Source: Escherichia coli (GTDB lineage Bacteria > Pseudomonadota > Gammaproteobacteria > Enterobacterales > Enterobacteriaceae). From it: DNA of 64,000 nucleotides. The notes beneath the pieces are model-generated. The model was not told the DNA's origin. It worked only from the letters and a program-made list of their open reading frames with translations, and searched no databases. Shown here in pieces: positions 3,087 to 45,607 of this stretch. The stretch is from NCBI RefSeq assembly GCF_013315695.1, contig NZ_CP054353.1; one strand, written 5' to 3'. The number at the start of each line of letters is the position of its first letter. The first letter of the stretch is position 1. The position numbers and the translations under genes were made by a program.

Positions 3087-3521
3087 ATGCGACAAATCAT
3101 CGACACCCTGGCGCAGTTGCAGCGCCTGCGGGATAAATCGGTCAAAGACAAAACCGTCGAGCTGGCAAAGCAAAAACAGATTTGTGCGGGTTATGACAAC
3201 AATATCAAAGCATTAGGCTACCTGGTGGAGAAAACATCTGCGGGCGCGGCAGCGTCGGTGGAATCGCTGAAAAACGTCAGCGACTACAAAGGCACCTTGC
3301 GCAAGGTGATCGCCTGGCAGGAGCAGGAAAAAACGCTGGCTAACATCAAAGCCACGCGAATGCAGAAAAACCTGACGGCGGCGGCGTGCGAAGAGAAAGT
3401 GGTGGCCCTGACGCTGGACGACAAACGCCGCGAGCAGCAAGAAAGTGCCACGGCGAAAGCGCAAAAAGCGGTGGATGACATCGCCGTCCAGTGCTGGCTG
3501 CGGCATAAGTTAGCGGAGTAG
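3087..3521 (+). CDS. lfiJ: Flagellar export chaperone-like protein, FliJ family (LfiJ)
   Basis: 144 aa coiled-coil-type protein; ATG at 3087 two nt after the fliI-like stop; position after the ATPase gene. Confidence 0.6.
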   Translation: MRQIIDTLAQLQRLRDKSVKDKTVELAKQKQICAGYDNNIKALGYLVEKTSAGAAASVESLKNVSDYKGTLRKVIAWQEQEKTLANIKATRMQKNLTAAACEEKVVALTLDDKRREQQESATAKAQKAVDDIAVQCWLRHKLAE

Positions 3522-3976: not shown

Positions 3977-4079
3977 ATGTTTAAAAAATCGCGTTTTTTC
4001 GACATATCCCCAAAACATGTCGATGGCATAAACGTATTCCAACGACATGTTTAAAAATCGCATTTTATCGACATATCCC
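3977..4079. repeat. Two ~34-bp direct repeats (ATGTTTAAAAA-TCGACATATCCC) in the convergent intergenic region
   Basis: Copies at 3977-4010 and 4047-4079, each with an internal ACATGTCGA/TCGACAT inverted motif; the second overlaps the glycosyltransferase stop. Confidence 0.4.
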
Positions 4080-6521
4080 TGACGATTCCTTGCCCGCCAA
4101 CGCCTCCACAATCACCATCGTCGCCCGTTCTCCCGCCTTGCCATCCATAAACGCATCGCAATAGTGATGACGAATCTTCGTAAGCCGCGCCTGCACCGCC
4201 CCCCAGTCAAACGCCTCTGACAACAAGTAACGCAACTCTGCCATATCATGAGCCACCGGCAATATTTCGCGGATTTGCTGATCGGCGCTCTCCGGCGTGG
4301 AGTAGCTTTTCTCGCCGTCGAGCAATTCACTCATGCCCGGAAAGTCGAGCAGGATCACCCGCTTATCAACGTGGATAGCATCGAAAATAAAGCCGCTGTT
4401 ATCGGTCAGCACGTAATCGGCCTTTGCCAGCAGCGCCAGCGTGTGACGGGCGGAGTCGGTGCGCTGTTTTAAATGCCTGCGAGCCAGGGCCAGCGATGCA
4501 GCTTCTTCCGGGCGCGAGCAGGTGCCGTGGTGCAGTTTGCAAATCAGGTTCACATCATCGCTTAAGCGCCCCAATTTTTCTGCCCAGTGGGGCAGGGAGC
4601 TTAATGCGCCAAACGTTGGGGCGTAGAGTACGGTGGGTTTACGCTCGTCCAGTTTGATATTTTCCGGCAACGCGCGGTCGAACGTGGCGTTATGCCAGGC
4701 GTCGAAGCGCGGGTTGCCGACCACTATTGCGTTGCTGAGGTGCGCCAGCGCCTGCTGGCTGTAGTGGCTGTAACACAAAATGCGCTGATAAAAACGGTTC
4801 CAGTCGGCGTGGTTCCACGTTTCTTTGGCTAAGCCGTACATGGCGCGAATGTTCAGGGGGGAAAGGCCACTGAGCGCAGGCGTGTGATAGGGGCTGACCA
4901 GGCATTTTACTCGCTGACCGTGTGCCTGCATTTCTGACAGACGCATACCTTTAAGCTGCGGATCGTCGATGTTTTTCAGTGTTTCCAGCATCTCATCCAG
5001 AAACGGTTTAAACACGCGGTCATTGATCACCAGTGTGCAGCTCTGCCCCTGCGCCTGCAGGGCGGTGATGATTGGGCGGTAGAGCGCGTAGTGGAATGAG
5101 GTTTCCATAAAAAAGCCGATGGTATCGGCGATAGGTAATGTAGATGGCTTGGTGGCTACGGGTAACTTATTGAAGTAGTGGTTAATGTTATCAGTCGCTT
5201 TTTTCTCGATATCACTAAAGCCCGGTCGCTGATAACAAAGGCTCGGGTAACAGGCCAGCCATTTGTCGGTGCGCAGCAGCGGCTGCCAGCCGTCTTCCAG
5301 CGAATGCTCATCGTTGTTCATCTGCTGCGCCAGCTGCGGGTAGTAGCGGCGGTTCACCAGATAAGCGCACACTTTGCGGCAGTCCCGCGCGTGCACCAGC
5401 CCAGGCAAACTTTTTAGCATCGTTCCCTGCGAAATTTCGCCGCCGAGGATCATCACCTGCCAGGGAATTTTCGCCAGGCTCGCCAGCAGCGCGTTCAGCA
5501 CCTGAATATGTTTCTCCTGTTTGAGAATAACCGCGTCATCTTCCAGCAGCAGGTAGTTTTGCCAGCCGCGTTGTTGCGCCAGACGCAGTGCCTGCAAGTG
5601 TGATTGCTGGCGGCCCCGTTGACCGTTTTCATTTTCACTGGCGGCAAGGCGGGTGATCTTCTCAGGAGGAATATGCAGCAATGTGAGTTCTTCACGGATC
5701 TGCTGTAAGCGATCCGGGCGTTTATCCAGATTCAGCAGAACGATCTGATCGATCGCCTGATGATGAGTGGCGTTATGCAGACTCAGATAAGCATTGCGGA
5801 GCAGCGGATCGCGGACGATATCCGTAAGCGTCGCGTTTACTGGCGTGCTGGCCCCGAGAATAAAGTCTTTATCAAAGGTGTTGTGGCTGTGCGAGATACA
5901 CAAAATCGTGCGCTCGCCGGGCAGTTGTAGCGGGTTAACGCTGAAATTGTCGGTGAAACTTTTCTCTTCGCCTAAATTGCAATCGTCATCGTAGCGGTGC
6001 TTTTTCAGGTAGTTACGGTGATAGCAAAAGGTGCCGTTGAGGATGTTATGCGGGCCGAAGCTGCGGCTTTGAAAGATGCGATTGATGTGGCTGTACCAGA
6101 TGGGGATCTGGTCGGAACCGGAGATGAGCGCCCGGTTTTTTTGCATCATAGCGATGGTGTAAGAGATTTTATCTGCCGGGTAGTAGTCGTCATCGTCCAT
6201 GCAGAGGATGTATTCGCCGCGCGCCAGTTCGTTGAGCATATTGCGTTTTTTGCCCAGCGGCAGTTTTTCCGGGTGATGGATGTAGCGGATGTTGAAGGCT
6301 TCCGGTGTGCCATTGGTCAGGCGGTCGATGATGTGTTGATGGCTTTGCGGGGAATCGTCGAGGATGATGAGTTCGCGGCGGTCTGCCGGGTAGTCCTGAT
6401 AGCGGTACATATAAAGCAGGTACGGCAGGAATGCGCTGCGGTTCCAGGTTGGCGTGACGACGCTGACGGACGGTTTTTCGCGCTGGGTGGCGAGTGTTTT
6501 GATAATGGTTGGTGTTGGCAT
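4065..6521 (-). CDS. Large multidomain glycosyltransferase (GT-A family 2-like + GT25-like + CDP-glycerol glycerophosphotransferase-like domains)
   Basis: N-terminal VSVVTPTWNR and CMDDDDYY (DxD) GT-A motifs; central LLNLDKRPDR GT25-like motif; C-terminal TagB/TagF-like region. The ORF track begins at a GTG (6593) inside a repeat, so ATG at 6521 is preferred. Confidence 0.75.
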   Translation of the reverse strand: MPTPTIIKTLATQREKPSVSVVTPTWNRSAFLPYLLYMYRYQDYPADRRELIILDDSPQSHQHIIDRLTNGTPEAFNIRYIHHPEKLPLGKKRNMLNELARGEYILCMDDDDYYPADKISYTIAMMQKNRALISGSDQIPIWYSHINRIFQSRSFGPHNILNGTFCYHRNYLKKHRYDDDCNLGEEKSFTDNFSVNPLQLPGERTILCISHSHNTFDKDFILGASTPVNATLTDIVRDPLLRNAYLSLHNATHHQAIDQIVLLNLDKRPDRLQQIREELTLLHIPPEKITRLAASENENGQRGRQQSHLQALRLAQQRGWQNYLLLEDDAVILKQEKHIQVLNALLASLAKIPWQVMILGGEISQGTMLKSLPGLVHARDCRKVCAYLVNRRYYPQLAQQMNNDEHSLEDGWQPLLRTDKWLACYPSLCYQRPGFSDIEKKATDNINHYFNKLPVATKPSTLPIADTIGFFMETSFHYALYRPIITALQAQGQSCTLVINDRVFKPFLDEMLETLKNIDDPQLKGMRLSEMQAHGQRVKCLVSPYHTPALSGLSPLNIRAMYGLAKETWNHADWNRFYQRILCYSHYSQQALAHLSNAIVVGNPRFDAWHNATFDRALPENIKLDERKPTVLYAPTFGALSSLPHWAEKLGRLSDDVNLICKLHHGTCSRPEEAASLALARRHLKQRTDSARHTLALLAKADYVLTDNSGFIFDAIHVDKRVILLDFPGMSELLDGEKSYSTPESADQQIREILPVAHDMAELRYLLSEAFDWGAVQARLTKIRHHYCDAFMDGKAGERATMVIVEALAGKESSGICR

Positions 6522-6570
6522 GGTGTTTGGGTGAGTTAATGGGTGAATGTGATGAATGTGCGTGCTGATG

Positions 6571-6680
6571 CCCTCACCCCGACCCTCTCCCACAGGGAGA
6601 GGGAGAAAACCAGCGCCGATTTTAACACCGTGCTCGATCGGTTCCCTCGCCCCTTTGGGGAGAGGGTTAGGGGGAGGGGA
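6571..6680. repeat. GC-rich double palindromic intergenic element
   Basis: CCCTCTCCC-ACA-GGGAGAGGG (6583-6603) and CCCTCGCCCC-TTT-GGGGAGAGGG (6644-6666), flanked by CCCTCACCCC and GGGGGAGGGG. Confidence 0.45.
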
Positions 6681-6699
6681 AAAGCGCGCACAGAGCGAC

Positions 6700-7629
6700 T
6701 CACGTCAGCAGCGAAAATGCTGACAGCAGCGGCTCTGCCGCACATAACGACTGGAGCTGCTGGCGAATCGCCGCAGCATTTTCACTCTCTCGCCAGCGTT
6801 CAAACACCGCAAAAAGGGCGAAAATATCCTCCTTCCGCAGCGGTGAACCATCCAGCGTCCATAAACTGATTAACGTGCGGATGAGATAAAAATCACACAC
6901 CAGCGGGCAATAATCTGCTCCGTCTGCCTGCCCAATCACGTCGTGATAAACGCGGTAAATCAGCCAGTTGCGCATCATCCACGGCGCGGCGGCAAAATGC
7001 TGTTGCCAGGTGGTTTGCCACTGCACCTTAAGCTGCTGTTGCAACAAAGCTTCGCTGTTGGCGTCATGCAACGTCAGCAAAGTCACCTGCAACGGTAGCG
7101 AGGCTTTGCGCGGGCTTTCCGGCAAAATCGACCAGTCAAACGCAAAACTCCCGAGCAGCGTCACCAGTTGGCGCGCCAGTTGTGGCACGGGTGGGAGTTG
7201 GGCGAACTGTGCCTGTAGCGTGCCTTTTTGTGCATGATCCCCCAGCGCCTGTGGCAGCGTCGTCAAGCGGGCAAGAATATCTCCGTCTCTGCCCGGCATT
7301 TTACTGGCGCGGGAGAGCAAAATCCCGACGGCATACAGGGAAAGCTCCGGGGTTAAATCGGGGAGCGTAAGGGTGCTCAAAATGGCCTGGTTTACTATCG
7401 CATCGCGCGCGGATAGCTCGGCGGCATTGTCTTCCACAGGGCGGTAGGTGAGCTGTAAATCAAAGGCCCTGGCATCGTTGAGCACCGCTTTGCAACTTTC
7501 AATATCGGTCAATGCCAGGCTCTGGCGAATCTCATTCTTCCAGACCTTGCGGACGTACAAAGGCGAATCGGGATATTGCGTCATAAAATTGCGCACGTAT
7601 TCCGGTTCGTAACATTCAATAAAACTCAT
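6700..7629 (-). CDS. Hypothetical protein (unknown function) downstream of the flgN-like gene
   Basis: ORF track 6700..7668 begins with TTG; internal ATG (MSFIECYEP) at 7629 with a GGAAG-like SD is preferred; no recognisable motif. Confidence 0.45.
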   Translation of the reverse strand: MSFIECYEPEYVRNFMTQYPDSPLYVRKVWKNEIRQSLALTDIESCKAVLNDARAFDLQLTYRPVEDNAAELSARDAIVNQAILSTLTLPDLTPELSLYAVGILLSRASKMPGRDGDILARLTTLPQALGDHAQKGTLQAQFAQLPPVPQLARQLVTLLGSFAFDWSILPESPRKASLPLQVTLLTLHDANSEALLQQQLKVQWQTTWQQHFAAAPWMMRNWLIYRVYHDVIGQADGADYCPLVCDFYLIRTLISLWTLDGSPLRKEDIFALFAVFERWRESENAAAIRQQLQSLCAAEPLLSAFSLLT

Positions 7630-7756
7630 AGGTGGCTTCCAGTCTTTATTACTTTGCGGAATGTGCAATAAGCGTGCCGGGAATTTTTGTAATCAAAAAC
7701 AAGGGATTGAGAATCAGGCGGAAAATCCGTTTCCGCGATGGGGGAAGGAATTGTCG

Positions 7757-10869: not shown

Positions 10870-10975
10870 AAATTGCCTGATGCGCTTCGCTTATCAGGCC
10901 TACATGAAACTGCAATGTATTGAATCTGCATGGTTTTGTAGGCCGGACAAGGCGTTCACGCCGCATCCGGCAAAA
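10870..10975. repeat. REP/BIME element (two REP units)
   Basis: GCCTGATGCGCTTCGCTTATCAGGCCTAC and GTAGGCCGGACAAGGCGTTCACGCCGCATCCGGCA palindromic units. Confidence 0.7.
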
Positions 10976-12964: not shown

Positions 12965-13003
12965 TCGTAGGCCGGATAAGGCGTTCACGCCGCATCCGGC
13001 AAC
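12965..13003. repeat. REP element
   Basis: GTAGGCCGGATAAGGCGTTCACGCCGCATCCGGCA unit between the flgF-like and flgG-like genes. Confidence 0.7.
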
Positions 13004-15999: not shown

Positions 16000-16335
<336 letters not shown>

Positions 16336-40783: not shown

Positions 40784-40859
40784 GCCGATATAGCTCAGTT
40801 GGTAGAGCAGCGCATTCGTAATGCGAAGGTCGTAGGTTCGACTCCTATTATCGGCACCA
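40784..40859 (+). tRNA. thrW: tRNA-Thr (anticodon CGU), thrW-like
   Basis: 76-nt GCCGATATAGCTCAGTTGGTAGAGCAGCGCATTCGTAATGCGAAGGTCGTAGGTTCGACTCCTATTATCGGCACCA; cloverleaf arms, CGT anticodon, encoded CCA. Confidence 0.9.
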
Positions 40860-44546: not shown

Positions 44547-45607
44547 CCGTCCAGAAGAAGATATTTTCACTGGCTGGTATGTCACCAAAATCCAGCAATA
44601 TGACAGCAAAGTCTGGCATTAATACAGCAGATACAAGCAAAGTTTATCATTTTCTGGTGGTAGGAGCGGATGCCTTAACTATGTCAGAAATTACGGTCGA
44701 TGGTGTTAGCGTTGAGAAGGTCAGCGGCTGCGCCAGAGAATTTCTGGTCGTAGATGGCTTTCTCTGCTCGCGTAGTGACTCCACAAAAACCTTCGTCCAT
44801 ACGCGCGACGTTAACGAAATGAGCGCGATGTATTGTGCATCTGGTGCTTCCAATACTGAGTTTTCGGAGTCCATAAAAAAGAGCTTGCCGTTATGCGGCA
44901 ACACGGTTTATGGTTATAAGGCACCTCATAAAACGGGTGCCGGGATTGGCGTCCTGAAAATTCTGAAGGCGACATATGACGCGCCGAGCGTCTTTTTTTA
45001 TGTCGTAGGTCTGACTCACCCATTTTTTGGGCGTTGGTGTATAATCCAGCGCCTTTGTCAATCAATGGTGGCTCAGGCGGGGGCTTCTTCGGAAGCGCCG
45101 GTATCCTTCAGAGCCGGTTACGCCAACCCTGTCTGGGCTACCACCAGCGAAATTGGCGTTTCCGGTGGTAGCGTAACCTGCTATCTGAAGGAGGCTGCCA
45201 CATGCTGGCTACTACCCCTACCCAAAAACCGCAATTTATCTGGATTATCGCCGCAGTTCGCCGCGATTGCCCGACAATTACCGCCAAAATTCATCATATT
45301 GCTGCCGAGTCTGAACGCGATGCTCGCCGTTCTCTGGTGCGCGATCACGTCTGCTTTTTTGCTGGTCGTATCCGCATGGAGGTGGCACATGATTAAAACC
45401 TACGATGTGCATATGGATCCCCTCGAACGCACAAGCCAGATCATCACACTGACAGAAGTGATTAACGACATTCTGGTGAGCAACTCTCCCTCACGAGACG
45501 AAAGGCTGAAGGCGTTACTCGCGATATTGGATCTCGCCGTTCGTGACGTTCATTTCCTGCTGGAAGGTGGCGAAATGCCAGGAAAAACGGGGGCAACCAA
45601 TGAATAA
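44540..45607 (+). CDS. Hypothetical ORF, possibly over-called or chimeric
   Basis: 355-aa open frame with heterogeneous composition; the only long open frame over 44.5-45.6 kb; its C-terminal part could be an independent small gene. Confidence 0.25.

Follow-up and report, generated by a model that had tools for sequence, protein, structure and literature searches.

The element between the two Flag-2 genes described here is very probably a divergent inverted pair of BoxC units, one type B-like and one type A, and an orphan of a dispersed, copy-number-variable structural repeat rather than a purpose-built regulator. It was analysed in a window of 64 000 nucleotides of Escherichia coli DNA (contig NZ_CP054353.1; "the window" denotes this whole stretch) and is situated inside the Flag-2 (lateral flagella) locus, where it occupies part of the 178 nt that separate two minus-strand genes; the window stretch is 100% identical over 5 kb to E. 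coli MSB1_4I. The element is a member of a family described in 1992 and, being a genuine copy of a known repeat, is of low intrinsic novelty. As one more such copy it has little weight for the biology of the Flag-2 operon, where it chiefly marks a rearrangement-prone spacer. Over three decades, the published record on the family has come to comprise in vitro structure and genomic variability, with no partner protein. Two observations are new: a strong association, across phyla, with a small gene of Vsr-like nuclease fold that is bracketed by inverted copies of the motif, and the covariation, in mirror fashion, of the third segment of the motif with its purine stem.

The left stem-loop (6583-6603) reads CCCTCTCCC-ACA-GGGAGAGGG and forms a perfect 9-bp stem; it is preceded by CCCTCACCCC at 6571-6580, giving the order CCCTCACCCC-GA-CCCTCTCCC-ACA-GGGAGAGGG. 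The right stem-loop (6644-6666) reads CCCTCGCCCC-TTT-GGGGAGAGGG, with a 10-bp stem containing one G.A mismatch, and is followed by TTA-GGGGGAGGGG, which ends at 6679. Both are embedded in an inverted repeat that is larger than the earlier note stated, with arms of 51 nt each (6557-6607 and 6642-6692) that are 73% complementary. In the window, both the 21-nt core and the full published pattern are matched twice, as against not once in 100 shuffles. As RNA, the spacer was folded to -82.1 kcal/mol in the mRNA sense (z -7.2) and to -85 kcal/mol on the opposite strand (z -5.2), and none of 200 shuffles was as stable in either case; as DNA, the corresponding values were -43 and -38 kcal/mol (z -6.2 and -5.1). 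The stem-loop pair at 6571-6680 is real and well above chance. The GC-rich paired palindromes of the earlier note are therefore present as described, with RNA folding far more stable than that of shuffles; the description "near-identical" does not hold strictly, as the units are inverted copies of two related subtypes. The pair is laid out divergently, with the hairpins facing inward and the third segments outward (Table 1).

By direct reading, the left unit provides 9/9 Watson-Crick pairs and 9/9 purine-motif triads, and its sequence is wholly compatible with an intrastrand purine-motif triplex. The right unit contains one G.A Watson-Crick mismatch and one non-canonical G*A triad, and would for these reasons be a weakened triplex former.

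Table 1. Positions of the BoxC doublet, its parts and the flanking cistrons in the window.
Feature	Position	Strand	Basis
Composite BoxC doublet, 136-nt near-palindrome, termini TGTGCGTGC...GCGCGCACA	6557-6692		inverted-repeat search; RNA/DNA folding, z -5 to -7
BoxC/TMECO unit, type B-like	6571-6603	-	exact match to published pattern
Type B-like unit, C-stem	6603-6595	-	
Type B-like unit, loop TGT	6594-6592	-	
Type B-like unit, purine stem GGGAGAGGG	6591-6583	-	
Type B-like unit, loop TCG	6582-6580	-	
Type B-like unit, third segment GGGTGAGGG	6579-6571	-	
BoxC/TMECO unit, type A with mismatch	6644-6678	+	exact match to published pattern
Type A unit, C-stem CCCTCGCCC	6644-6652	+	
Type A unit, loop CTTTG	6653-6657	+	
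Type A unit, purine stem	6658-6666	+	
Type A unit, loop TTA	6667-6669	+	
Type A unit, third segment GGGGGAGGG	6670-6678	+	
Spacer, both unit heads (AGAAAACCAGCGCC ... AACACCGTGCTCGATCGGTT)	6604-6643		heads recur beside other BoxC copies
Type B unit tail (TGTGCGTGCTGATG)	6557-6570		recurs beside other type B units
Type A unit tail (GAAAAGCGCGCACA)	6679-6692		recurs beside other type A units
Upstream cistron, hypothetical protein / lysine-N-methylase	6700-7668	-	ORF list; RefSeq annotation of identical/orthologous records
Downstream cistron, glycosyltransferase, annotated start ATG 6521	4065-6521	-	ORF list; annotation in orthologous records

BoxC was reportedly first described near fabI (envM), and the family was later rediscovered as potential intrastrand triplex (PIT) elements. 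Its literature comprises Bergler 1992, Bachellier 1999, Hoyne & Maher 2000 and Holder et al. 2015 (PMC4666352), the last of which makes the equivalence of BoxC, PIT and TMECO explicit and gives the TMECO pattern as CCCTCNCCC N3-6 GGGNGAGGG N3 GGGNGAGGG. A passage of PMC2267715 that cites BoxC gives a length of 56 bp and 32 copies in K-12. Subtypes are set by the second loop, TTA in type A and CCG or TCG in type B, and K-12 nos 12 and 20 (TCG) are typed B (Holder et al. 2015, PMC4666352). By this rule the window pair is also A plus B (right loop TTA, left loop TCG), as are all five inverted pairs of K-12, each of which joins one type A with one type B unit (Holder et al. 2015, PMC4666352). The core of the left unit is identical to K-12 TMECO no. 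20 (Holder Table 1; type B, second loop TCG). The right unit equals K-12 no. 7/11/15 (type "A mm") plus a T-to-G change in the third segment, a position at which strain O111 11128 retains T. The divergent layout matches the K-12 pair TM17+18 (lldD-trmL), the other four K-12 pairs having the opposite layout.

Beyond the 33-36-nt core, the copies have common heads (GTGCTCGATCGGT in type A, GGTTTTCT in type B) and tails, which in both types end in GCGCGCAC. The E. coli copies compared were collected singly from BLAST matches and Holder Table 1. Heads and tails recur in hrpB-mrcB, phnK-phnL, phnP-yjdP and strain D8, so that an extended unit of ~56-60 bp is recognised. The type B tail GTGCGCGCTGAT flanks type B units in hrpB-mrcB, phnK-phnL and phnP-yjdP, and the type A tail also flanks type A units in strain D8, in phnK-phnL and at K-12 TM9. 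A full-length homologous composite that includes the spacer was found in phnK-phnL of another strain (85.8% identity), and homologous composites with the spacer are also present in phnP-yjdP of other strains. A search of 5,426 complete E. coli genomes with a 151-nt query found the family in 5,399 of them; the median number of places per genome was 14-16 and the maximum 29, and the window's own genome has 10 BoxC places. In other genera, the motif is reported to be missing from Salmonella and to reach 143 copies in Enterobacter. The proposal of the earlier note that the palindromes resemble a dispersed intergenic repeat family rather than REP is thus borne out, REP copies being located only elsewhere in the window, and the search for further copies that it suggested showed that the element is not unique in its genome. 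BoxC sites are not marked by a repeat feature in the K-12 RefSeq annotation.

The window pair agrees with published BoxC/PIT/TMECO elements in consensus match, intergenic position, multiple copies, inverted A+B pairing, common flanks and a strain-variable locus. It differs in the T-to-G change of the third segment, in the rarer divergent layout (one of five K-12 pairs) and in its setting, a strain-variable Flag-2 locus in a genome without ycjD. For the consensus sequence, an intrastrand triplex was formed in vitro, and an in vivo DMS footprint revealed no protection; variability was higher at TMECO loci, and neither an association with mobile elements or plasmids nor a preference for gene class, distance or operon position was reported (Holder et al. 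2015, PMC4666352). Unlike that report of no plasmid association, ~45-47 BoxC places were observed on E. coli plasmids.

Across E. coli strains, orthologous Flag-2 spacers were found in no fewer than five structural states (pair, collapsed, single, none and IS-disrupted). The pair allele (178 nt) is shared by the window and O111 strain 11128. The collapsed allele of strain d1-58 (114 nt) consists of a perfect 21-bp hairpin left by a 64-nt deletion between direct CCCTCTCCC copies and corresponds to the "palindrome effect" of Holder et al. 2015 (PMC4666352). Strain D8 carries a single type A unit (113 nt) in the opposite orientation; this reversed unit (locus L001, 1504-1616) is not explained by simple deletion and implies independent insertion or inversion. 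EC958 and PSUO2 have a divergent, unit-free spacer of 46 nt, and in strain LD93-1 ISEc52 interrupts the type A C-stem and is accompanied by a CCT duplication. This IS3-family element (LD93-1, locus L131, 3340-4600; window ~6646; 3-bp duplication) splits the Flag-2 spacer. Both flanking genes are annotated as intact in EC958, PSUO2, D8 and O111 11128, with or without the element; the glycosyltransferase is annotated as a pseudogene in d1-58 and LD93-1. No recognisable Shine-Dalgarno sequence was seen upstream of the glycosyltransferase ATG at 6521 (6500-6521, minus strand; …AACTCACCCAAACACCATG), and the same is true of the element-free EC958 allele. The local consequence of the element is thus shown to be structural instability of the spacer. 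The allele diversity fits the published link of TMECO motifs to local variability and, with five alleles among strains, disfavours a dedicated or conserved regulatory role.

REP elements act as intercistronic RNA-stability elements, and a comparable role was considered for the doublet: once transcribed, its long hairpin would block 3'-5' exonucleases or be cut by RNase III, so that the upstream flgM-flgN-methylase segment would be stabilised and expression of the glycosyltransferase uncoupled. The mRNA-sense fold (-82.1 kcal/mol, z -7.2), the position between two co-directional cistrons and the occurrence of other BoxC doublets inside operons, for example phnK-phnL, agree with such a role. It is nevertheless rather unlikely, since other strains with the same intact gene pair lack the element or have it halved or collapsed, neither hairpin is followed by a U-tract, and published surveys see no preference for gene class, distance or operon position. 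In addition, Maher's follow-up study, in the form in which Holder et al. 2015 (PMC4666352) cite it, found the motif inactive as a promoter or terminator and without effect on RNA polymerase. The variety of alleles, the lack of a U-tract and these negative assays together disfavour an RNA-stability or attenuation function, and the functional guess of the earlier note is not supported. In the polycistronic mRNA, the predicted very stable hairpin of -82 kcal/mol might incidentally alter processing or decay.

An improbable reading is that the units regulate, as DNA or RNA, by switching between G-quadruplex, hairpin and duplex (Kaplan et al. 2016). Both units hold four G3+ tracts with loops of ~3 nt (GGGAGAGGGTCGGGGTGAGGG and GGGGAGAGGGTTAGGGGGAGGGG), each is one base off a published motif (HPG2 and HPG1, respectively), and the type B unit is in the G-rich orientation in the mRNA, ~50 nt upstream of the glycosyltransferase start. 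HPG1 and HPG2 were described as G-quadruplex-hairpin-duplex switch motifs (Kaplan et al. 2016, PMC5100583). Formation of G-quadruplexes and hairpins in vitro has been published for the family. In the window, GGGAGAGGGTTAGGGGGAGGG and GGGAGAGGGTCGGGGTGAGGG are within one mismatch of GGGAGAGGGTTAGGGTGAGGG or GGGAGAGGGCCGGGGTGAGGG. The same sequences have thus been seen as G4 motifs, the window units differing by one base from HPG1 (TTA loop) and HPG2 (CC loop); that paper neither links the motifs to BoxC nor shows a function. Against a switch stand the lack of a demonstrated regulatory effect in the literature found and the dispensability of the locus across strains. Moreover, variants flanking DUF559 genes (see below) conserve the mirror relation of third segment and purine stem, which four G-tracts alone do not need.

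That the element is a Rho-independent terminator or attenuator closing the methylase transcript is very improbable. The hairpins are GC-rich, and one weak terminator-like match was found in the central spacer (minus strand, 6630-6611; 7-bp stem plus GTTTTCTCCC); however, the strong BoxC hairpins lack a 3' U-tract on either strand, the weak match is located in the conserved type B head, which is found at non-terminator positions too, and the published terminator assays were negative. The T-run GTTTTCTCCC after the weak hairpin itself belongs to this head. In a promoter and terminator scan, nothing resembling a sigma-70 site was identified, and the BoxC hairpins did not register as terminators.

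That the pair represents GC-rich palindromes arisen by chance, or a member of REP/BIME or ERIC, has only superficial resemblance in its favour and can practically be dismissed, as none of 100 shuffles matched, REP is absent here, ERIC gave no match and no Rfam family was assigned. The REP consensus (GCCGGATGCGGCG...CCGGCCTAC) matched the window at 10938, 12967 and 16070 and not at 6500-6700; the ERIC/IRU core gave no matches with up to three mismatches allowed; and Rfam searches, at gathering thresholds for the whole window and by E-value for 6450-6780, returned only generic hairpin (miRNA-model) noise for the element.

A divergent BoxC doublet thus remains the preferred reading. Each unit is made up of a pyrimidine and a purine stem plus a third purine segment in mirror image; when the DNA is single-stranded, a unit could fold into a hairpin plus third strand (purine-motif triplex) or into a G-quadruplex. 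Both units jointly form the 136-nt near-palindrome. Like MITEs, the doublet is short (~136 bp), non-coding and dispersed, has terminal inverted repeats and is polymorphic for presence and absence. It differs from them in having no known transposase, in its units being found alone as well as in pairs of either relative orientation, and in the lack of a visible target-site duplication, which was sought at the ends of four BoxC copies. The "empty" alleles of EC958 and PSUO2 are ~88% identical overall with a non-homologous 46-nt spacer, and are too divergent for insertion boundaries to be defined from them.

A source of the family is suggested by its distribution. In a scan of one genome per species with the 21-nt core, at least 180 matches were found in the betaproteobacterium Mitsuaria chitosanitabida among the loci listed, and 50 of the 52 close pairs among the matches listed had the divergent layout of the window. 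At two separate Mitsuaria loci the units bracket an ORF of 139 aa that belongs to DUF559 (Pfam E 2e-38); a third, frameshifted Mitsuaria copy and a copy from an Akkermansiaceae MAG are flanked likewise. In the spacers of the Mitsuaria divergent pairs (L013-L123; e.g. L014 1647-1787, L024 1377-1633, L078 188-298, L079 1698-1833), short tandem repeats particular to the locus (GATAGCT, TCATCGA-like, CTCCTTCTTCTCC, GCAGTAGCGAT and others) or additional partial hairpin copies are frequent, and the structure may promote slippage there.

The association was examined from the side of the gene in 80 metagenomic loci of YcjD relatives (43-99% identity; locus GC 0.32-0.71), which had been selected by peptide patterns that lie inside the DUF559 domain. 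The strict core gave 60 matches in the 30.8 kb that lie within 200 nt of the gene, 22 that overlap its 3' end and 16 in the remaining 325 kb, that is, a ~40-fold enrichment near YcjD-like genes (binomial p 4e-49). A strict core was present near the gene in 44 of the 80 loci and a parsed three-segment module in 64. Usually, a forward unit ends ~5-120 nt (mostly 15-75) upstream of the aligned gene start and an inverted copy overlaps the 3' end. The downstream copy overlaps the end of the ORF in all three frames (10/7/10), which places the constraint at the DNA rather than the protein level. Within a locus, left and right copies are more alike than copies of different loci (median score 22.5 versus 11; Wilcoxon p 1e-10), and at one locus of 39% GC the inverted repeats are ~100 nt long and nearly perfect. 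Genes flanked by inverted copies were thus found across taxa, in metagenomic loci, Mitsuaria, Akkermansiaceae and at E. coli ycjD.

Most core-negative loci hold variant modules in which the third segment mirrors the purine stem except that one A is replaced by T: GGGGGAAGG/GGATGGGGG in 10 modules, GGGGGAGGG/GGGTGGGGG in six, GGGGAGGG/GGGTGGGG in five and GGGGGAGGA/AGGTGGGGG in two. A purine-motif triplex needs this mirror relation, and a G-quadruplex or a symmetric protein dimer does not, which argues that the three-segment architecture itself is conserved.

The YcjD-type protein was assigned to Pfam DUF559 (E 1e-49) and has a homologue of solved structure, PDB 3HRL (E 1e-27). DUF559 has the PD-(D/E)XK fold and is classed alongside Vsr and a homing endonuclease of a group I intron; the candidate metal-binding residues D49, E60, D62 and H66 are invariant in the YcjD-family alignment. 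In one survey, DUF559 is among the families enriched as predicted targets of programmed inversions, as expected for a gene bracketed by long inverted repeats. A literature search found no paper tying DUF559, ycjD or COG2852 to BoxC or triplex repeats.

The association of DUF559 genes with the motif is well supported on purely genomic grounds. Going further, we give even odds to a model in which BoxC/TMECO elements would be the terminal inverted repeats of a widespread YcjD-type DUF559 (Vsr-like PD-(D/E)XK) nuclease cassette, the triplex-forming module would be the substrate recognised or cleaved by the nuclease, and BoxC singles and doublets would be gene-less, non-autonomous or orphan derivatives comparable to REP/REPIN elements and the RAYT gene. 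As in REP/BIME, REPIN and RAYT (TnpA-REP) systems, the repeats are short, structured and intergenic and are found alone or as inverted doublets that join two subtypes; a single-copy gene has inverted repeat copies on either side, and copy number varies with lineage. The BoxC sequence is unrelated, however, and has a three-segment mirror architecture rather than a simple hairpin; the DUF559 protein, for which no activity is known, has the Vsr-like PD-(D/E)XK fold in place of the HUH transposase fold of RAYT. The protein may mobilise the repeats, home into convergent doublets, or be no more than a neighbour of them. Several points weigh against the cassette model: a genomic association does not demonstrate enzymatic activity, Holder et al. 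saw no connection to mobile elements, no motif is found upstream of K-12 ycjD, the window's genome lacks ycjD yet has 10 BoxC places, no target-site duplication was seen, and the copy-number correlation in E. coli tracks phylogroups, so that shared ancestry is possible. If the link is true, it would constitute a new repeat-plus-gene system, a second one of the REP/RAYT kind with a different protein fold and a triplex-forming repeat, and would provide the first comparative-sequence argument for selection on an intrastrand DNA triplex in bacteria.

In E. coli K-12, the gene concerned is ycjD, which adjoins fabI (envM) and which we take to be the only DUF559 gene of this strain. Its stop codon lies inside a degenerate unit, and TM9 follows ~170 nt downstream. 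A ycjD variant that is longer by 12 nt, or four codons, and was noted in ST69/ST182 has an intact unit, the extra 12 nt being CCCTCACCCcaa; the outer flank of this unit matches the BoxC type A head. BoxC tails are unlike the current coding 3' end of ycjD and only the outer head resembles it, which bears on a model of MITE formation by internal deletion. Phylogroups A, B1 and C, as well as ST69 and ST182, carry the gene, which replaces the eefRABCD operon there (PMC12817139). TM9 is part of the ycjD block, since the fabI-proximal homology of an eef-positive strain stops 41 nt outside it. Downstream of K-12 ycjD (L133 2800-2870; L135 690-790), a ~45-nt duplicate of the ycjD 3' end is followed by a degenerate second unit; this resembles what would remain of a second DUF559 cassette located between ycjD and TM9. 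Just upstream of the gene (L133 ~3262-3310), a perfect 16-bp inverted repeat (CACCTCATTCTGACAA ... TTGTCAGAATGAGGTG) that is not a BoxC unit overlaps the start codon.

BoxC and ycjD were compared in a rank-spread sample of 60 E. coli genomes. The 37 ycjD-positive genomes had a median of 18 BoxC places (range 8-28) and the 23 ycjD-negative genomes a median of four (range 1-22; Mann-Whitney p 3e-9), a difference that is suggestive only, since it follows phylogroups. No ycjD-like gene was found in the window, and ycjD is absent from its genome; under the cassette model, the BoxC copies of this genome would therefore be orphans.

Elsewhere in the window, the three canonical REP copies (10938-10971, 12967-13000 and 16070-16103) and two Rfam naRNA4 matches (REP325-type nucleoid-associated RNA; 16073-16150 and 16191-16267) are located downstream of the Flag-2 genes. 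Further Rfam matches, at 44921-44998, 45061-45148, 40784-40856 and 63177-63377, correspond to isrK and C4 antisense RNA, a tRNA gene and IS009 RNA. Of these, isrK and C4 antisense RNA are typical of P4/retron-like prophage regions; together, the matches point to a possible integrated element in the window's second half.
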